64,000 nucleotides of DNA from an uncultured Gammaproteobacteria bacterium (GTDB lineage: Bacteria; Patescibacteriota; Microgenomatia; PFEM01; DATLAM01). The position numbers were made by a program, and so were the translations under genes. Below the pieces are notes generated by a model. It ran no database searches. It was not told where the DNA came from and was given only the letters and a program-made list of their open reading frames with translations. Positions 44,315 to 54,998 of this stretch are shown here, one piece after another. Every line of letters starts with the position of its first letter. Position 1 is the stretch's first letter. The DNA lies in NCBI GenBank assembly GCA_964566925.1, contig CAZMIZ010000001.1, positions 135,248 to 199,247 of the forward strand, read 5' to 3'.

Positions 44315-45439
44315 ATGAAACTTTCAATCCTCCAAGAAAATCTTGCCCATGGTTTGTCAATTGTTAGCCGATCGGTGGCTACCAGGGCTCAATTGCCAGT
44401 TTTAAGTAATGTTTTACTAGCTACAGATAAAGGCAGGTTAAAACTTTCAGCAACCAACCTGGAAACCGGGGTTAATCTTTGGTTGGGGGCAAAGGTTGGC
44501 AAAGAAGGCGCCCTTTCAGTCCCTGCTAAAATTTTAACTGAATTTGTTACTTCGCTCCCAGCTGGGAAAATTGAAATAAAGGCTCAAGAGAATAATCTCC
44601 ACCTGGTTAGTGGAACTTACGAAGCCAGTTTTGTCGGCATGGCCGCCAGTGAATTTCCCACCATTCCCAGTCTAAAAAAGAAAGCTGATTTGCAGTTTTC
44701 TAGTTCTCTTTTAGCCTCGGCAATTAACGAAGTGGCTTTTGCCGCTGCTCAAGATGAGGGGAGGCCGGTTCTCGCCGGGGTTCTTTTAAAAAGCCAGGAT
44801 AAAAAGCTAGTTTTAGTAGCCACAGACGGCTACCGATTAAGCATAAAGAAAATTAAAGAGACAAAAGGAGTTGACCGAATTAAAGACCTAAAGAAAGGCC
44901 TAGTTTTACCCGCCCGAACCCTTTTGGAAGTAGCCAGGGTTGTGGCTGAAAAAGAAGAGGAAAGTCTAGGCGTAAGTGTGGCTCCCGAAGCGAGTCAATT
45001 AATTTTTACCACCAGTGAAATAGAAATTGTTTCTAGATTGATTGAAGGCAATTTCCCAGATTTTGAAAAAATTATCCCCGGTAAAGGGAAAACCAAGGTT
45101 GTCCTTGACCGAGAAGAACTGACTCGGGCGGTGCGGATGGCCGCGATTTTTGCCAGGGAGTCAGCGAATATCGTTAGATTTCAAATTTCTGGAAACAGTC
45201 TTCAGATCAGCGCCAATACGGCCCAAGTGGGTGATAACCAGAGCGTGCTTGAAGCCAAGGTTGAAGGGGAGAAGAGTGAAATCGCTTTTAATTCCCGCTA
45301 TCTTTTAGATTTTTTAAATATTGTCAATTCAGACCAAATTGTCTTTGAGACGAGTGGGGCGCTTAACCCTGGGGCCTTCCGGCCAGTAGGTGAATCTTCC
45401 TATCTTCATATTATTATGCCTGTTCGGGTTCAGAAATAG
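44315..45439 (+). CDS. dnaN: DNA polymerase III beta sliding clamp
   Basis: MKLSILQENLAHGLSIVSRSVATRAQLPVLSNVLL. Confidence 0.9.
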   Translation: MKLSILQENLAHGLSIVSRSVATRAQLPVLSNVLLATDKGRLKLSATNLETGVNLWLGAKVGKEGALSVPAKILTEFVTSLPAGKIEIKAQENNLHLVSGTYEASFVGMAASEFPTIPSLKKKADLQFSSSLLASAINEVAFAAAQDEGRPVLAGVLLKSQDKKLVLVATDGYRLSIKKIKETKGVDRIKDLKKGLVLPARTLLEVARVVAEKEEESLGVSVAPEASQLIFTTSEIEIVSRLIEGNFPDFEKIIPGKGKTKVVLDREELTRAVRMAAIFARESANIVRFQISGNSLQISANTAQVGDNQSVLEAKVEGEKSEIAFNSRYLLDFLNIVNSDQIVFETSGALNPGAFRPVGESSYLHIIMPVRVQK

Positions 45440-46532: not shown

Positions 46533-49500
46533 TTAAAGGATTGGTGAGCCACTACAATCGCCATACGATTTAAAGAGACATTTTTGAGGGCAACCAGGTA
46601 AATAATTACAAGGATCCTCGGGACTGCCAAGAAAACAAGAAATCGTCCCGCAACTACTGACGCCAAAATGGAGATGGGTACCAGTTGAACGGCCTGAATC
46701 ATCCATGATCCCAATTATATCACTCGAAGAAACCTCGTCACCCTCGTTTTTAGGGAAATTGCAGCGGAACTCGTCTTCTAGATGGCCATAAAGGGTATAA
46801 AGATTCTCACGATGCTGGATAATCACGTAACAGCCATAGCCAGAATGGTACCCTTGTTGGGCAATGACCCCTCGAGTAGCCGGGTGGATATCCGTGCAAC
46901 CATCTGGGGGGATGTCAATTCCTTCATGAAATTCACATTCGTGGGGCGGGAGAGGATCAGCCCGCCAGCCGTAATTACTGGAACAATCATGATAACAAGT
47001 GGGCCAGCCAAAGATCCAGGTTTCGCCAGCGGCATTAATACAAACTGGAGGAGAGGAGGAAGAAAGGTTTTTCCCTGATTGGGTTGTACCCATAACAGTT
47101 AAATTATCACAAAGCATCTCTTCCCCTTGGAGATAGTTACTTAGAGGCGGATCTCTGAGGGCCAAATGGATGGTAATGGTTTGACTGCCACCCGGGCTTA
47201 AGGGGCCAAGTTGAGAACACTCTTCTTGGGTCCAGGCGAAGGTATTGGAAACATGAGTACTAGATGGTTGTTGGGTAGGGTCACACGGAGAAAAAGTTGA
47301 GGTGTCTGGGTCGTAGAGCATGATGAGGGAAACGAACCCGGGTTCTTCAAAACGATCAAAGACCTGGATGTTCCCCAGTAAACCGGCTGCTTCATCCTCA
47401 GGATTATAAGAGTAGGTTAAAGTGTAATCAAGGGCGATGATTTCTCCGTTCTGATCAAAGACAGGCGTGACTGTTTTTTCGATCGGTAATTCCGGCGAAA
47501 TAACATGAGATCTAATTGCCTGCTCTACAAAAAAGGCGCTGGTTATGACATAAAGAGTGAATACGGAAAGGAGAGCTAAAAGCCCAATGCCTGCTAGAGT
47601 GAGAATTGAGGCAGAGGTAATTGTCGCGACAATCATAGGAATAGTTTCGTAGAGCCAGTAAGCGACTGCGTCGGGAATAATAAAATTAATGGCGCTAATT
47701 AAACCAGCTTTTAGGGTGGGCCACCACAGAGGTCTGGTGAGGAAGGCGACGTCAATTAAAGTAAATTGGCCTAAATAAAGCGGCCCGGAAAACCAATTCT
47801 GAAGGGCGATTAGGGGTGGCGTGCCAGAGAGAAGATCCATAATTAAAGGGCTGGTTGTGACTATAGGGAAAAGCCAGGGAATAAATCTGCCTAAAAGGGC
47901 AGGGATCCGTCCTAGTTTAGCCAGAAGATTAAGAAATCTAAGAAAGCCTGGGATTTTGCTTAAACCAGTCCTGGCAAAAGGCCACCACCATTCTCGAGTA
48001 GCCCAAGCCCATTGGGCTAGGGCCGGGATGGGAATAGCCCAAAGAGGAATTAAGCCAGCCGTATAGAGAACATAGCCAAGAGCAAGGCCTTTGATGGGGA
48101 AGCGCGCATAAGGATGCTCAGTTAACCAAATAGCTGGTTTACCCACGATGCGCCGAATCCATTTACTGGTAAAATGAGTTGAAGGTTCTCGGAGCCAGGC
48201 AAGCCATCGATCATTTTTGCCAATATCCAGCCAAAATTGATAGAAGTGGCCACTTCCCCCACCAAGAATGATTCCTAGCTGGGGAAACCCAATCATTTCG
48301 CCAACAGCATAACCCAAGACTGTACCAGAAAGAGTATTGAAACTGAAAAAACTCCGAGCGAATTGACCACTAAAGCTAACGGTCATCCGCAGGCCCCTAA
48401 TGGCTGGTGCACCCAAAAATCTTTTTCCAAAAGAGGTTTCGGTTAAGCTTGTCCAAACTTTAGCAAGTTGGCCAAAAGCAAGCCTTTGGGTTAACCGGGC
48501 CACCGTACCCACAGTTAAATCAAGGCCGAGTTTAAGAAGAAGGACTAGGGGACTCCGATCCCAATCTTGTTCCCGCCGCCGGAAAGCCCGACTTAAGCCA
48601 AACCAGAATCTTTTCATAAAAAGACTTTTTGATTTTTGGCTACGGCCGAAGAAATAGTTAGCCCCTCGGCGGAAGGGGGCGGAGCTCGATTGTCCCAACC
48701 AAGCTAAAGGGCTGAAAACTGGTTTCGATTTTCCTGGAGCGTAGAACGCCTCTTTATAGAGGCCCAAACGACCACCAAGACGTCTTTTAACGGCTGTCCA
48801 AAACCGATAGTTAAGTTCAGGAGTGATGTAAATTTTACGAAGAAGCTCACCTTTTTTGAAAGTGTAATCAATGTATTTCAGATGAGCCCATTTTGCTCCT
48901 GGGACTAAAGCTTCCAGTGCTCCTCTAATTGGGTCGATGACGGTCAGGGAGATGGTCCCTCCAATAGGGTTGGTGGCGAAGTATTCGATTTGATTCTTTA
49001 AATAGATTGCTTCTGCGCCAAAGGGGCCCTTTAACGCCTGAATCGTTTGATTAATTGCCCCTTCTTCAGTAGGAATAGCCCAATAAGTAGTTTCCCTTTC
49101 CGGGTGGCCTAAGGGACGGACCTGTATTCGGGGGAGATTATTTTCGTCGACATCAAGAAAAACCTCTTTTGGCAAATTGGGAACCAAAGATTGAAGAAGA
49201 CGACGGTTGATCGGAATGACGGGATTAAGGTAGCGCGAGCCATGACTGAGAAGACTTTTCTTGATCTGGCCGATAAGCTTTGCTCTCTCGTTAGGAGTAA
49301 GGTTAAGAGGTTTAAAAATTTTTTTAACCGCATCTTCAACTCCACTTGCTTCCTCAAAAAGACGAATGGTTAAATCTTCGGCTGTTTTTTGAGCTTCAGT
49401 CTGGGCGGCAGCCATGCTACCTGTTTTTCCTAAAGTTTCGGTGTGCGTTTTATAGAACTGATCATTAACTCTTTGAGCATAATTTCTCCCTAATTTGATG

Positions 49501-50216
49501 GCCAGACGGCGGTGTCTTTCTGGGTAAAAAAGAAGGTCGGGAGTTGCCTCAAGCGCCCAATAAGCCTGGGTTGAATATTTTGTGGCCAGCTCATTAAAAT
49601 GAAGCAAGGGTCCAAGTTCCTCTTGGAGGGCAATTTTTTTAGCTTGTGATAATCCCTTCCAGGCTGATAGCCGGGGCTGGCCAGCCTCATCTAGAAGGTT
49701 TTCTTTTCTAAGGAGATGATAGACACGTTCTTGAATAAGTTCATTTTCTGGGATTTCTGGCTCAACCGGATCAGTAAAATCGGACAGGGCGGCTGATCTA
49801 GTTTTTTCTCTTTGGAAAAAATCTGTTTCGCCAGTTTTTTCCACCCCTTCCCAGCGGTGTTGGTGAGCTTTCTCAACCTGCTCCTCAACGGTCGATTCGC
49901 CAGCCTTTTTTAATTCCCCCTCAATTTTTTTAGCTAGGTGTTTCTGGTGGGCTTCAATCAGATTGCTCAGCTCAGGAGGAAGAGGGGGAAGACTGGGCAA
50001 GAACCCCTTTTTAAAAGAGGCGTCAAGGGCTTTTTCTAATTCTGGAAGAAACTCTGGTTTAATGACCGTAATCGGAGCTTTAATCCCCAATTCACGGGCC
50101 CAGAGGGCGAGATTGGCTTTTGCCTTATTTTCAATTTCTTTAGGAACATCTTTTAGCTGAAGACCTCTGATTAATCGCCAAAGGCGATAGTATTTTCCTA
50201 AGATTGCTTCATCCAT
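46533..50216 (-). CDS. giant polytopic membrane protein with C-terminal Cys-rich region and M23 peptidase domain
   Basis: 1227 aa. A soluble N-terminal region of about 600 aa, about 10 TM helices, then HEGIDIP ... HSGYGCYVIIQH ... GRSTGTHLHFG, which are M23 HxxxD/HxH motifs. Confidence 0.7.
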   Translation of the reverse strand: MDEAILGKYYRLWRLIRGLQLKDVPKEIENKAKANLALWARELGIKAPITVIKPEFLPELEKALDASFKKGFLPSLPPLPPELSNLIEAHQKHLAKKIEGELKKAGESTVEEQVEKAHQHRWEGVEKTGETDFFQREKTRSAALSDFTDPVEPEIPENELIQERVYHLLRKENLLDEAGQPRLSAWKGLSQAKKIALQEELGPLLHFNELATKYSTQAYWALEATPDLLFYPERHRRLAIKLGRNYAQRVNDQFYKTHTETLGKTGSMAAAQTEAQKTAEDLTIRLFEEASGVEDAVKKIFKPLNLTPNERAKLIGQIKKSLLSHGSRYLNPVIPINRRLLQSLVPNLPKEVFLDVDENNLPRIQVRPLGHPERETTYWAIPTEEGAINQTIQALKGPFGAEAIYLKNQIEYFATNPIGGTISLTVIDPIRGALEALVPGAKWAHLKYIDYTFKKGELLRKIYITPELNYRFWTAVKRRLGGRLGLYKEAFYAPGKSKPVFSPLAWLGQSSSAPFRRGANYFFGRSQKSKSLFMKRFWFGLSRAFRRREQDWDRSPLVLLLKLGLDLTVGTVARLTQRLAFGQLAKVWTSLTETSFGKRFLGAPAIRGLRMTVSFSGQFARSFFSFNTLSGTVLGYAVGEMIGFPQLGIILGGGSGHFYQFWLDIGKNDRWLAWLREPSTHFTSKWIRRIVGKPAIWLTEHPYARFPIKGLALGYVLYTAGLIPLWAIPIPALAQWAWATREWWWPFARTGLSKIPGFLRFLNLLAKLGRIPALLGRFIPWLFPIVTTSPLIMDLLSGTPPLIALQNWFSGPLYLGQFTLIDVAFLTRPLWWPTLKAGLISAINFIIPDAVAYWLYETIPMIVATITSASILTLAGIGLLALLSVFTLYVITSAFFVEQAIRSHVISPELPIEKTVTPVFDQNGEIIALDYTLTYSYNPEDEAAGLLGNIQVFDRFEEPGFVSLIMLYDPDTSTFSPCDPTQQPSSTHVSNTFAWTQEECSQLGPLSPGGSQTITIHLALRDPPLSNYLQGEEMLCDNLTVMGTTQSGKNLSSSSPPVCINAAGETWIFGWPTCYHDCSSNYGWRADPLPPHECEFHEGIDIPPDGCTDIHPATRGVIAQQGYHSGYGCYVIIQHRENLYTLYGHLEDEFRCNFPKNEGDEVSSSDIIGIMDDSGRSTGTHLHFGVSSCGTISCFLGSPEDPCNYLPGCPQKCLFKSYGDCSGSPIL

Positions 50217-50251: not shown

Positions 50252-52177
50252 TTAAACTCCCCTAGCTTCGGCTGTTTCTGGGAATTTTTCTGGCTCAGAA
50301 GGAGTTTTCGCTTCTGAAGTCTGGACTGCTCCTGGCGCTTCTTTTGCGGCCTCAATTGCTTTTCTTTTGATTTCTCTCATCGCCAACAGCTCTTCTGGCT
50401 TAGAAGTAATCAATTGGTGTTCGTTGGGGGAGGCCACGACTCGGATCGCCACGTGGTTGGGTCCAGCAAAAAAGAGACCTTCGCCGATGTCCGCTGCTAA
50501 CAGAAGGTGTTTTTCTCCTTCAGAGAGATAGAAAACCTCGGCTACTTGGTCAATGGCGGCGGCCGACATTTTCATCAAGGTTTGGATTGAGGAGTTTTGG
50601 ACAATCGCCTTGCCGTACTCAGAAGCAAGAAAATCCTCAGCGTCCTGAGTGATGGTAGTTAAACCAAGATAATATTTCCTTGCCCTTTTAGCAATTGAAT
50701 AAAGGAAGTTAGCCGAATCCGGATACTTCATTAGATACCAAGCCTCGTCAACCACCAAAATCCGTTTCTTCATTTCTTTTTTGATTTTCGTCCAGATATA
50801 GTCGAGGATAATAAACATGGCAATTGGCCGTAAAGTATCTTCCAAGTCTTTAAGAGAAAAGACAGTAAAGGGGCTTTTAATATCTAGATTGGAGTGTTGA
50901 TCAAAAATGCCGGCGAAACTGCCTTTAACGAACTTTTCAATCCGATCAGCCAGGGAGATCGCTTCTGGTTCTTCCATCCCGCGCAGAGCCTTGTAGAGAT
51001 CCTCCATTAATGGCGGCTCATTTTTCTGGGTAGCTGGGTCCGGGGTGATCCCTTTCATTTTGTAAGTTAAAACTAGAGCTCGATCTAGAGTAGCCTCTTC
51101 GCTAGGCGAAAGCTGCCCCATAATTACTTTAAAAAGTGAATGAAGAGAAAGAATTTTCAGACCGAGTTCGTTTTCGCCTTCTTCATAAACAGCGGAAAGA
51201 TCAAAAGGGTTGATTTTGGCTTGGCTGCCAAAACCAAAACTAATAAATTCCCCACCCACCGCTTCAGCTAAGGGCTGATATTCGGCTTCAGGATCAATAA
51301 TGAGAATTTCACTATCAAACATCAGGGAGCGGAGGGCTTCTAGTTTAACCAGGTAAGATTTACCGGAGCCAGATTTGCCAAAAACAACCGCGTTGGCGTT
51401 TTCCATGGTGAAGCGATCAAAGATAATCAGCGAATCATTGTGCTCGTTAATGCCGTACATGATTCCCTCATTGGCGGTAAGCTCGCTTGAGGTAAAAGGA
51501 AAAGTGGTGGCCAAAGAGGTTGTGTCCATGTTCCGGGTGATCATCAGCCGATCATAACAAGTAGGCAGGGTAGCTTTGAAGCCCTCTTCCATCTGAAGAG
51601 TGGCTTTTTTAGAAATAATTAAGAGCGAACCTAAGGTTGATTCGACTTGTTTAGAAACCTGGTCGAGTTCTTCTAAGGTTCCAGCCGGGATGGTGATGTA
51701 AAGGCCGAATTGGAAAAAACGCTCCGCCCCTTTAACTAGCTGTTCTTGCAGTTTCCGGGCGTCTTCTAGTTTTGCTTTAGTGGCAGGATCAACAATTCTT
51801 CCTCTTTGGGTATCTGATTGGATTTCGGCTTCCATTTCACCAATTTTACGCCGCAGCTCATCTAAAATTGATCTCCCTTCAACCGGATAGACATACATCG
51901 AAATATCCAATGAGTGATCAAAATTGATTAAAGGGGCGAGCCAATTGGCGGAAACAAAGCGGGGATAGCCAGCCACGAAAAGGGTCCGGAAAAAAGTATT
52001 GCCGATTTTAACGTGATTAAAGTCCACCTCTAAAGCTGGCGGAGCAATCAAGTCCTGAATTTGGACCATTCCTTTGCCCAGGCTTTCCGTGGGAGGCAGC
52101 TTTCTCTCTCCATTAGGAGGGGTTCCGGCTGACTGGCCTTTTGGAGCGGTTTTGGTTTTTAGGAAAGGTAAGCGCAT
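50252..52177 (-). CDS. VirB4/TrbE-family type IV secretion ATPase (ATPase core)
   Basis: Walker A VVFGKSGSGKSY, Walker B RILVVDEAWYL, a TTITQDAEDF motif, and the N-terminal CagE/TrbE/VirB domain start FFRTLFVAGYP. Confidence 0.8.
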   Translation of the reverse strand: MRLPFLKTKTAPKGQSAGTPPNGERKLPPTESLGKGMVQIQDLIAPPALEVDFNHVKIGNTFFRTLFVAGYPRFVSANWLAPLINFDHSLDISMYVYPVEGRSILDELRRKIGEMEAEIQSDTQRGRIVDPATKAKLEDARKLQEQLVKGAERFFQFGLYITIPAGTLEELDQVSKQVESTLGSLLIISKKATLQMEEGFKATLPTCYDRLMITRNMDTTSLATTFPFTSSELTANEGIMYGINEHNDSLIIFDRFTMENANAVVFGKSGSGKSYLVKLEALRSLMFDSEILIIDPEAEYQPLAEAVGGEFISFGFGSQAKINPFDLSAVYEEGENELGLKILSLHSLFKVIMGQLSPSEEATLDRALVLTYKMKGITPDPATQKNEPPLMEDLYKALRGMEEPEAISLADRIEKFVKGSFAGIFDQHSNLDIKSPFTVFSLKDLEDTLRPIAMFIILDYIWTKIKKEMKKRILVVDEAWYLMKYPDSANFLYSIAKRARKYYLGLTTITQDAEDFLASEYGKAIVQNSSIQTLMKMSAAAIDQVAEVFYLSEGEKHLLLAADIGEGLFFAGPNHVAIRVVASPNEHQLITSKPEELLAMREIKRKAIEAAKEAPGAVQTSEAKTPSEPEKFPETAEARGV

Positions 52178-52180
52178 TGT

Positions 52181-53062
52181 TTATCTTTTTTTAACTGTTT
52201 TAATTAAATTGTCAATCTGCCGCTGAAGGGCCTCGCCTTCCAGAGGGGGTTGACCACTGGCCGGCGGCTCCCTTTTTTCTGGTTCAGAAGAAGGGTTGGG
52301 TGAAGATGGGGTTGGTTGAGGCGAAGGAGCTGGGGGTGTTGGGCTTAATGGTTGAGGCGGAGGTGATGATTCAGGCGAGGGAGCTTCTAAAGCTGGCTCC
52401 ACTAAAGGGGTTTTGTATTCAGAGGCAGCGGTAATTTTTTGTCCTTGAGTTTCCGGGTTATAAATAGAGAAGAAGAGCTCAATTAATTCCTGGCTGCTTA
52501 GCTGATGAGTTCTTAGACCTAATCGGCTGAGGAGGCGGATCAGGTGATCTCTTTTGGGGTAAAGATTGGTTTTGGCTCGCTCAAGGATATAGTCTTTAGG
52601 AAAAGGAAGGCCCTTTTTCTTTTTAAAAATGGAAGTGGCTGCTTTAGTGGCGCCTAGCTCCAGAGCAGTCATCGGAATGACAATATAGAACTTTTTATCC
52701 AAAACTTCATTTTGCTTCACGGTTTCTGCAACGAAGGCTCGATATTTTTGGATCTGTTCAGCCAGGAGGGGTTCCTTTTTTTTCTTTTCTTGTTCCTCCA
52801 AGAGCTTCAGATAGTTGGAAATATCTTTTTTAATGGAACGAATCACAATTTGGATCGGAAAGGTAAGTGAATTAAGAAGGCCAGCGTAAGCATAGATGGT
52901 GGCGTCTTGCTCTTTTTCCGAAAGCAAACCAAAATTGATGGCAGTCGTCGCCAAGACCAGACAGACACCACCGTCTTTAAGGACCACCAGGTCATCTTGA
53001 ATATCCTCAATATCCAAATGCTCTTGACTAGTCGCTCGAATAGGAATTTTGGTAGGATCCAT
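52181..53062 (-). CDS. VirB4 N-terminal-domain-like protein with Pro-rich tail (in frame with the downstream ATPase ORF across one TAA)
   Basis: DLVVLKDGGVCLVLATTAINFGLLSEKEQDATIYAYAGLLNSL resembles the N-terminal region of Gram-positive VirB4 homologues. Its stop TAA (52181-52183) and the ATG of the next ORF (52175-52177) are separated by one codon in the same frame. Confidence 0.4.
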   Translation of the reverse strand: MDPTKIPIRATSQEHLDIEDIQDDLVVLKDGGVCLVLATTAINFGLLSEKEQDATIYAYAGLLNSLTFPIQIVIRSIKKDISNYLKLLEEQEKKKKEPLLAEQIQKYRAFVAETVKQNEVLDKKFYIVIPMTALELGATKAATSIFKKKKGLPFPKDYILERAKTNLYPKRDHLIRLLSRLGLRTHQLSSQELIELFFSIYNPETQGQKITAASEYKTPLVEPALEAPSPESSPPPQPLSPTPPAPSPQPTPSSPNPSSEPEKREPPASGQPPLEGEALQRQIDNLIKTVKKR

Positions 53063-53144: not shown

Positions 53145-53519
53145 TTACTTTTTCTTTAGTTTATTTATTATCGAATTAAAAATTAAGTTTAGCTCTTTAG
53201 CTTCTTGCCATAATGTTTTTGCCTCTTCCTTTAGTTCTGGGACAGCAATAGGAATCATTCTTAACCAATGTTTTGACTCTCTTGATTCCTTTTTACATAT
53301 ACCGATTTTATGGCCAAAGTCTCGTTTAGACTCAGCGTCGTCGGCCTCACAGTAGTTAGCTCCAACACTGGTTCCTGCTTTAACAAGTTGAGTTATTAAC
53401 GGGGTCGTTATCGGCATCTTGGGTATTCTATTGGCAAACTTAATAATATTTTCGCCAAACCTGGCGGTTCTCTCTTCTAAATCGAATTTTTTACTTTTAG
53501 TTATTTTGTTATTAGTCAT
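53145..53519 (-). CDS. four-helix-bundle protein (23S rRNA intervening-sequence protein / Avd-like family)
   Basis: ARFGENIIKF ... QLVKAGTSVGANYCEADDAESKRDFGHKIGICKKESRESKHWLRM matches the TIGR02436/PF05635 family. Confidence 0.75.
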   Translation of the reverse strand: MTNNKITKSKKFDLEERTARFGENIIKFANRIPKMPITTPLITQLVKAGTSVGANYCEADDAESKRDFGHKIGICKKESRESKHWLRMIPIAVPELKEEAKTLWQEAKELNLIFNSIINKLKKK

Positions 53520-53552: not shown

Positions 53553-54581
53553 TCAATTCTGCTTGGCTTGAATTTCTATTGGCTGAGTAATTTCCCCTTT
53601 AAGAATAATTTGGATTAGGTCAAAGTGGAGGCCTTCCTTTTCCACCTCGATTTCGTAAGTCCCGTTTTTTAAAGGACTGGCGATTCTGAATTGGCCGAGC
53701 TTGTTGGTTTTTAAGGCTCGGACAGGCGAACCTTTCTCGTCTCTGATTTCAATGATGGCATTTTCAACCAGCTTGCCCTCTTGATCAATGACCATGCCCA
53801 CTAAAATATTGGGACGGTCTGGTGGAGCGGGAATGGGGAGATCAGGGGAAAGTCTGGGTTTAACCGTAGGCGATTTTACCCGGGCTGGTTTTTTGATTGG
53901 GGCAGCTTTTTTAACTACTTTCGGCTCTGGGGCCGGTTGGGGCATGGTTTTTTCGGCTGCCTTGGTGGGCGCTTTTTGGGGTTCAGCTAAGGGAAGGTGA
54001 AGTTTCCGGATTTTAATTCCCGGTTTTACCTCTTCAGCCAGGGCTGGCTTGACATTCGGGGTTAAGGTGGATGGGAGAGAAACCAGCTGGAAGAGATTGC
54101 CGATTTGGTTAAGGGCGCCCTCTTCCTGTTGATCTAGCGGACTGGATGGGGTAGTGGTGGGCAGTGTTTTGAGGTATTCCTCGAGCCGGGCTTGATCAAC
54201 CGGTGTGGCGGGGGCTTGTTTCTTTACTTTCGGCCGAGGGACAACCTTAAAGAATTCCGGCTTGACCGGTGTTTTCTTCCAAATAAACTGGGTGGGTGAA
54301 TAGATGGCTTTTGAAAAGGCGATAAACCAGCGGTCAAGTGGCCGTTCCTCAATCGGCATAAAAGCAAAAGCAACTCCGCTGAGACCAGAAAAGATGACTA
54401 GCGGCCATTTAAAATAAGAAGCCAAGGGGGCAGCGTAAAAAAGAAGAGCGACGAGACAGCCACCTGCCAGAAACCCAAACTGTTTAAGGGTCATGTCGCC
54501 GACCAGCCGAAACTGGTAGGCGGTGATATGTTGCGGGACAGGATGTTGTTCCATAAGCGCTTCGCGCAGGACAGAGCGCAC
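53553..54581 (-). CDS. PrgI/VirB3-like membrane protein with Pro/Lys-rich linker and C-terminal CarbopepD_reg-like beta domain
   Basis: N-terminal ITAYQFRLVGDMTLKQFGFLAGG plus two TM helices resembles the PrgI family. The C-terminal ILVGMVIDQEGKLVENAIIEIRDEKGSPV ... NGTYEIEVEKEG is transthyretin/CarbopepD_reg-like. GTG start. Confidence 0.4.
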   Translation of the reverse strand: MRSVLREALMEQHPVPQHITAYQFRLVGDMTLKQFGFLAGGCLVALLFYAAPLASYFKWPLVIFSGLSGVAFAFMPIEERPLDRWFIAFSKAIYSPTQFIWKKTPVKPEFFKVVPRPKVKKQAPATPVDQARLEEYLKTLPTTTPSSPLDQQEEGALNQIGNLFQLVSLPSTLTPNVKPALAEEVKPGIKIRKLHLPLAEPQKAPTKAAEKTMPQPAPEPKVVKKAAPIKKPARVKSPTVKPRLSPDLPIPAPPDRPNILVGMVIDQEGKLVENAIIEIRDEKGSPVRALKTNKLGQFRIASPLKNGTYEIEVEKEGLHFDLIQIILKGEITQPIEIQAKQN

Positions 54582-54626: not shown

Positions 54627-54998
54627 CTAAGATTTTTCTAAGTTCTTCATTAATGTTGTTAAAATTTTCATTAATTCGGTATTCCTGGTAAGAAAACCCT
54701 TAATCATTTGATTATCAAACTTTTTCGTTTCAAACATAACATCCAGCCAATAATCTGCCTCAAAGCTGGATCCTCGGGAAATTCCAAGAAACTGACGATA
54801 GCTTTTAGAATAGTAGCGACCATAACCTTCGGCAATATTCGCACCAATAGAAGACAGCGCCCTTATGAGTTGACCAGTAAGAATTTCAGCAACTCTATCT
54901 TTTCGTTGGATAGAGAAATATTTAATGGCATCAACTGTTAACAGTTTTGCCTTTTGGTAAGCAATTAAGTTTTTATAGGAAGCGGGCAGTTTTCGCAT
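54627..54998 (-). CDS. four-helix-bundle protein (23S rRNA intervening-sequence protein / Avd-like family), second copy
   Basis: YQKAKLLTVDAIKYF ... GQLIRALSSIGANIAEGYGRYYSKSYRQFLGISRGSSFEADYWL matches the canonical family signature. Confidence 0.75.
   Translation of the reverse strand: MRKLPASYKNLIAYQKAKLLTVDAIKYFSIQRKDRVAEILTGQLIRALSSIGANIAEGYGRYYSKSYRQFLGISRGSSFEADYWLDVMFETKKFDNQMIKGFLTRNTELMKILTTLMKNLEKS

Follow-up and report, generated by a model that had tools for sequence, protein, structure and literature searches.

A TrsD-like gene directly upstream of a TrsE-type virB4: a probable natural two-piece VirB4 in a Patescibacteria type IV secretion locus

The window analyzed here is a 64,000-nucleotide (nt) stretch of contig CAZMIZ010000001.1 (assembly GCA_964566925.1, positions 135,248 to 199,247 of the forward strand), and our subject is a pair of adjacent minus-strand genes in it that belong to a type IV secretion system (T4SS). 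The upstream one, open reading frame (ORF) 1, encodes a TrsD-like protein of 293 amino acids (aa), and the downstream one, ORF2, a VirB4-like ATPase (Table 1). An earlier note, made from the sequence alone, had read the pair as a VirB4 divided by one in-frame TAA between the 293-aa ORF and the ATPase ORF, and had left four options: a natural two-piece VirB4, stop-codon readthrough, a recent nonsense mutation or a sequencing error. The coordinates and the description of this stop codon were correct. The minus-strand junction is ...AAA AAA AGA TAA ACA ATG CGC TTA CCT TTC CTA AAA..., in which the ATG that starts ORF2 (52175-52177) shares the frame of ORF1, and one sense codon (ACA) separates the TAA from the ATG. 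No clear Shine-Dalgarno sequence was observed before virB4 upon inspection of the junction. The proline-rich segments reported on both sides were also present: the tail of the 293-aa ORF is predicted to be disordered at aa 214-272 (pLDDT <50), and the ATPase ORF has about 25 aa rich in Pro and Gly after its first residues, MRLPFLKTK.

The ORF2 product matched the NCBIfam model NF045971 (conju_CD1110, 'VirB4-like conjugal transfer ATPase, CD1110 family') with 400.9 bits and an E value of 1e-119, passing the curated family cutoff of 325. Pfam matches were P-loop_TraG (E 5.6e-28), AAA_10 and DUF87, with CagE_TrbE_VirB being marginal, and, in the comparison with the Protein Data Bank (PDB), the C-terminal domain of the Thermoanaerobacter VirB4 (4AG5) matched residues 234-591 with an E value of 2.3e-47, while TrwK was also matched, with an E value of 6e-5. 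Nonetheless, ORF2 covered only positions 185-733 of the 752 in the CD1110 profile, and its aa 39-590 matched positions 294-893 of the 894 in the NCBIfam VirB4_plasma profile. The positions just before these, 129-292, were matched by aa 33-218 of ORF1 (E 2.5e-9). The ORF2 polypeptide does not contain a complete VirB4 N-terminal domain, and the missing part is the one that matches ORF1; ORF2 contains the P-loop ATPase domain, preceded by what forms the second half of that N-terminal domain. The plasmid search also found a single 754-aa VirB4 homologue in the Carboxydocella plasmid pCCELLA01, whose residues 11-182 aligned with residues 12-208 of ORF1 (BLASTP, E 1e-16, about 27% similarity), and residues 179-747 with residues 34-597 of ORF2 (E 8e-78). 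ORF1 and ORF2 are thus exactly collinear with a single-chain homologue, without overlap or gap, and the break point lies within the VirB4 N-terminal domain, behind the first ~180 residues of the chain. The suggestion that the 293-aa ORF resembles a VirB4 N-terminus was therefore borne out by alignment, both to VirB4_plasma positions 129-292 and to residues 11-182 of the Carboxydocella protein.

We found 3483 homologues of ORF1 in the protein collection, and the best 120 of these 3483 were Patescibacteria proteins of 225-410 aa, every one of them standalone. The precomputed annotation places PF26593, whose name is TraC-like, on the collection protein identical to ORF1 (P0001, 100% identity) and on nearly all homologues; it is from this annotation that the ORF1 assignment is taken, and our own Pfam scan, run with a copy of Pfam that lacks the PF26593 model, gave only a sub-threshold TraC_F_IV match. 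In the family alignment, the first ~220 residues were highly conserved, and many homologues ended at about 225 aa, after the conserved domain. The tail region could not be aligned and differed in length or was absent among homologues, while the C-terminal helix (...LQRQIDNLIKTVKKR) ended at the identical alignment column in many relatives. The AlphaFold2 (AF2) model of ORF1 was confident at about residues 17-205, disordered at 214-272 and helical at 275-292. When this model was compared with the PDB by Foldseek, every one of the top 11 matches was a chain from an R388 T4SS entry, and most carried a TrwK/VirB4 label; the best match had an E value of 7.8e-3 and a probability of 0.96. A PDB profile search with the ORF1 family alignment returned no match even at E 10. 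Separately, similar-looking beta-beta-beta-alpha-beta sequence patterns in ORF1 and in the ORF2 N-terminus had suggested an internal duplication, with ORF1 and the N-terminal ~230 aa of ORF2 as paralogous repeats; hhalign of the ortholog alignments gave a probability of 0.7%, and the duplication was rejected at this sensitivity.

Whether orthologous loci show the same split had been raised in the earlier note, and they do. Eighty loci from different species were retrieved, and the junction was analyzed in the 75 where both genes were readable. Two separate genes were found in 75/75: the ATPase gene was always an ORF of its own, and no continuous ORF ran across the junction. The start of virB4 was in frame +2 relative to the upstream stop in 42 of the loci, for the most part as ATGA overlaps, +1 in 25 and 0 in 8, meaning that the in-frame arrangement accounted for 11%, below the 33% expected by chance (1/3 for random adjacency). 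The spacing extended from -116 nt (overlap) to +185 nt (gap), with a mode of -4, an ATGA overlap present in 22 loci, and the upstream gene ended with TAA in 44, TGA in 27 and TAG in 4. Of the closest relatives (73% identity), one contained ...AAA AGA AAA TAG aaac ATG CAG CTA CCC TTT..., with a 4-nt spacer and out of frame, and in another both genes overlapped by 26 nt, again out of frame. The 4-nt spacer differs from that of the window by 1 nt, and both proteins are unchanged; since a one-base difference leaves the two proteins intact, this points to two independently translated genes. Moreover, MxLPFLKK was found at the very N-terminus in 27-37 of 65 ORF2 orthologues, and an SD-like motif (Shine-Dalgarno) preceded virB4 in 28/65. 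The TAA and the ATG of the window's junction both fall at conserved protein ends, and the comparison showed them to be the native stop codon of ORF1 and, after three bases, the native start codon of ORF2. The shared reading frame is a coincidence of the 3-nt spacer, with no sign of selection, as random adjacency would place one third of the loci in frame and only 8/75 of the orthologues were.

These data bear directly on the explanations in which one gene was, or still is, read across the junction. A continuous virB4 of ~935 aa, interrupted in this genome by a recent nonsense mutation or through an error in assembly or sequencing, is what the local view alone would suggest, with its single in-frame TAA and an ATG one codon further on. 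We consider this extremely unlikely, as 0/75 orthologous loci were continuous across the junction, the best 120 ORF1 homologues were all standalone, the stop codon and the ATG lie at a conserved C-terminus and a conserved N-terminus, respectively, and the closest relatives hold the same two genes with a spacer 1 nt different. Programmed or leaky readthrough of the TAA would yield some fusion (ORF1-X-Thr-ORF2) in addition to the separate proteins, and for this the frame is permissive both here and in 8/75 orthologous loci; single-chain versions, presumably functional, also exist. This explanation is nevertheless very improbable: the in-frame layout is not conserved, being rarer than chance among the loci and missing from the closest relatives, the orthologues end their upstream gene with any of the three stop codons, and a TAA followed by A is not known as a leaky context. 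Hence, the readthrough, nonsense mutation and sequencing error options of the earlier note all gave way to the finding of independent orthologous genes in 75/75 loci, with out-of-frame spacing in 67/75, including the closest relatives, and the natural two-piece VirB4 was the right option of the four, with ORF2 lacking exactly the part that ORF1 matches.

Apart from the question of the split, six of the orthologous virB4 genes (L008, L018, L028, L043, L073 and L078) were unusually long, encoding 1194-1336 aa, with an insert of ~580-650 aa located directly after the Walker A motif (at about aa 274 of ORF2, nt ~51356). In L008 (5325-8906), this insert contained Intein_splicing and LAGLIDADG homing-endonuclease domains, and it is an intein in the P-loop of a Patescibacteria VirB4. 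The idea that the long orthologues are fusions with the downstream gene was rejected, the extra length being due to intein insertions; the virB4 copy of the window has none. It was also observed that in pCCELLA01 (L082, 1-8837) the single-chain VirB4 and an M23 peptidase are encoded directly downstream of Tad/Flp pilus genes (TadE-like, CpaA, CpaB and T2SS protein F), on a plasmid that is MOBC-type mobilizable, and this pilus neighbourhood is unusual for a VirB4.

Collectively, this analysis makes it highly probable that the window contains two separate, co-transcribed genes, one TrsD-like and the other a TrsE-type virB4, that are part of a chromosomal, conjugation-derived, MPF-FATA-like T4SS of Microgenomates-type Patescibacteria. 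Both ORFs have their homologues in Microgenomates and other Patescibacteria. The two parts would be joined in one polypeptide in a single-chain VirB4 that is either ancestral or a sister, whereas in this lineage, as in pSK41/pGO1, the first sub-domain of the N-terminal domain, of ~180 residues, would be a separate protein. virB4 is probably translated in a coupled manner, following termination at the stop codon of the upstream gene, because the junction is tight, no clear Shine-Dalgarno sequence is present here and overlapping stop and start codons are the commonest arrangement in the orthologues, and such coupling would give roughly matched amounts of both proteins. In the R388 structures, the VirB4 N-terminal domain is in contact with VirB3 and the membrane complex. 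In single-chain VirB4, the sub-domain that corresponds to ORF1 touches VirB3/PrgI-type partners and fixes the ATPase hexamer to the membrane channel. From the R388 structures, and from the collinearity with single-chain VirB4, we infer that the TrsD-like protein binds the ATPase non-covalently; the missing membrane-proximal sub-domain would thereby be provided in trans, beside the PrgI/VirB3-like protein.

Some observations weigh against this reading. The match of ORF1 to the NCBIfam TrsD/TraD model (NF041427) had an E value of 2.8e-6 and 27.3 bits, far under the curated cutoff of 200, so that ORF1 is a distant relative and no member of the curated family. The fold match between ORF1 and TrwK was numerically weak (E 7.8e-3, TM 0.29), and the part of TrwK that was aligned was not evident. 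The translational coupling and the physical association of the two proteins are both deduced rather than observed. Finally, the pairing is not universal, as TrsD homologues of Gracilibacteria are usually not adjoining virB4 (PMC12102498).

In another explanation, the TrsD-like protein shares its ancestry with the VirB4 N-terminus but has given up the role of a detached VirB4 domain, and works as an independent T4SS accessory factor, such as an adaptor, a regulator or an assembly chaperone. TrsD has no assigned function, and its usual location away from virB4 in Gracilibacteria (PMC12102498) would fit such a role, as would the lineage-specific additions of ORF1, with its long disordered tail, rich in Pro, and its terminal helix, and the similarity of only ~27% to single-chain N-termini. 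On the other hand, ORF1 remained adjacent to virB4, and tightly coupled with it, in about 75 of 76 loci from different species where the region downstream of ORF1 was readable, the collinearity with single-chain proteins is exact, and it is precisely the sub-domain of ORF1 that is missing from ORF2. We thus regard an accessory factor as distinctly unlikely, and favor the reading of a VirB4 made in two pieces. Within this reading, the split may itself be functional and not neutral, and the disordered Pro-rich tail and terminal helix of ORF1 could form a docking pair with the conserved N-terminal MxLPFLKK peptide of the ATPase, which staphylococcal TrsE shares. This proposal is speculative and we hold it to be unlikely; if true, the N-terminal sub-domain could be added, exchanged or titrated apart from the ATPase hexamer, and T4SS assembly would be regulated at a step not available to single-chain VirB4 systems. 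Still less likely is a variant where low-level readthrough of the TAA here adds a covalently fused isoform.

For annotation, these results mean that the junction needs no 'repair' and should carry neither a pseudogene flag nor a recoding label, and that the 293-aa gene should be labelled as a TrsD-like (VirB4 N-terminal-domain-like) T4SS component. They add one more example of a Patescibacteria T4SS that uses the pGO1/pSK41-type two-piece VirB4; the T4SS is reported to be essential in the sole strain tested, Ca. Southlakia epibionticum, where a TrsD homologue is among the genes listed as essential (PMC12102498).

With regard to the neighbourhood, the gene order on the minus strand was PrgI/VirB3-like, TrsD-like, virB4 and the 1227-aa M23 protein (Table 1). 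The T4SS cluster begins right after dnaA-dnaN, beside the presumed replication origin, and this agrees with the description of Patescibacteria T4SS clusters as often being near dnaA and dnaN (PMC12102498). Two TIGR02436 genes flank the PrgI-like gene inside the T4SS operon. In the closest relatives (L083-L086), nothing separates the PrgI-like gene from the TraC-like gene that follows it, and the copy at 53145-53519 is therefore an insertion specific to this genome. The position of the M23 protein after virB4 was shared by relatives and by a Pontibacillus plasmid. The first ~1050 residues of this protein showed no family match; by eye, they seemed rich in hydrophobic, membrane-like segments. 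It occupies the position of VirB6-like and cell-wall hydrolase genes, where pSK41 has TrsF (VirB6-like) and TrsG (hydrolase), and it could be a divergent VirB6/VirB1-type component, a candidate put forward because VirB6 homologues are scarce in Microgenomatia (PMC12102498). The five unmatched ORFs that flank the T4SS genes may be unrecognised T4SS or surface components.

Table 1. Features of the TrsD-virB4 locus and of the neighbouring genes, with positions in the window.
Feature	Position	Strand	Basis or remark
ORF1, TrsD-like / Pfam 'TraC-like' protein, 293 aa	52181-53062	minus	conserved domain aa ~10-210
ORF1 Pro-rich tail, length-variable, predicted disordered, aa 214-272	52247-52423	minus	pLDDT <50
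ORF1 C-terminal helix, aa 275-293, ...EGEALQRQIDNLIKTVKKR	52184-52240	minus	alignment and AF2 model (helix 275-292)
Junction, TAA 52181-52183 and 3-nt spacer ACA 52178-52180	52178-52183	minus	sequence
ORF2, VirB4-like T4SS ATPase, TrsE/CD1110 type, 641 aa	50252-52177	minus	
ORF2 Walker A GKSGSGKS, aa 267-274	51356-51379	minus	translation and alignment
PrgI (VirB3-like) membrane protein with C-terminal CarboxypepD_reg	53553-54581	minus	Pfam E 2.7e-7, E 1.4e-7
1227-aa protein, C-terminal M23 peptidoglycan endopeptidase domain	46533-50216	minus	Pfam Peptidase_M23 E 7.5e-19, aa 1096-1187
dnaA	42666-44111	plus	
dnaN	44315-45439	plus	
'Four helix bundle' / 23S rRNA-intervening-sequence protein (TIGR02436)	53145-53519	minus	
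'Four helix bundle' / 23S rRNA-intervening-sequence protein (TIGR02436)	54627-54998	minus	
ORF 358 aa	45441-46517	minus	no Pfam/NCBIfam match at E 0.01
ORF 1102 aa	55147-58455	plus	no Pfam/NCBIfam match at E 0.01
ORF 361 aa	58476-59561	plus	no Pfam/NCBIfam match at E 0.01
ORF 463 aa	59643-61034	minus	no Pfam/NCBIfam match at E 0.01
ORF 935 aa	61044-63851	minus	no Pfam/NCBIfam match at E 0.01

When compared with single-chain VirB4 of the CD1110 family and with R388 TrwK, the pair shows a collinear homology, as both ORFs do with the Carboxydocella protein, and there is also a structural likeness, with the ATPase domain of ORF2 matching solved VirB4 structures and the ORF1 model having R388 TrwK/VirB4 entries as its best PDB matches. 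Those proteins, however, are one polypeptide, whereas the window encodes two, with about 110 residues of low complexity at the break point (the ORF1 tail plus the ORF2 leader). A counterpart in two pieces is found in TrsD-TrsE of pSK41/pGO1 and TraD-TraE of monoderm MPF-FATA systems, where a small homologue of the VirB4 N-terminus is also encoded directly upstream of a VirB4 of ~640-670 aa that is without this part; a remote homology between TrsD and the start of VirB4 has been described (Quiñonero-Coronel et al. 2025, PMC12102498). In pSK41, trsD (227 aa) lies 14 nt upstream of trsE (672 aa), out of frame. ORF2 aligned end-to-end with pSK41 TrsE from residue 1 (E 2e-50), with MIMAFLKKK in TrsE against MRLPFLKTK. 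The staphylococcal TrsD was not reached directly by tblastn of ORF1 against plasmids, and profile methods were needed for this link: hhalign of the ORF1 family alignment with pSK41 TrsD covered 178 columns, with a probability of 78% and an E value of 1.8e-5. The gene order is alike as well, since trsD-trsE of pSK41 come after a VirB3-like gene and before genes for a membrane protein and a cell-wall hydrolase, and a Pontibacillus plasmid has the same split and synteny as the window. The differences are that pSK41 is a conjugative plasmid, whereas the locus of the window is chromosomal, beside dnaA/dnaN in a Patescibacteria genome, with no relaxase seen among the neighbouring ORFs scanned; that ORF1 carries a disordered Pro-rich tail and a terminal helix that are extra to TrsD, and scores far beneath the cutoff of the curated TrsD model; and that the hydrolase is an M23 domain fused to a very large upstream region, where pSK41 has CHAP.

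The locus is one more member of the T4SS already described in Patescibacteria, where TrsD is the most abundant T4SS component, with 2,272 homologues, 1,664 of them associated with virB4 (PMC12102498). The association of a TrsD homologue with virB4, the PrgI/VirB3 homologue and the proximity to dnaA/dnaN are all shared with those systems, and there is no substantive difference, the in-frame junction being peculiar to the genome of the window. The arrangement is thus the typical TrsD-VirB4 gene pair of Patescibacteria T4SS, already described in that study (PMC12102498).

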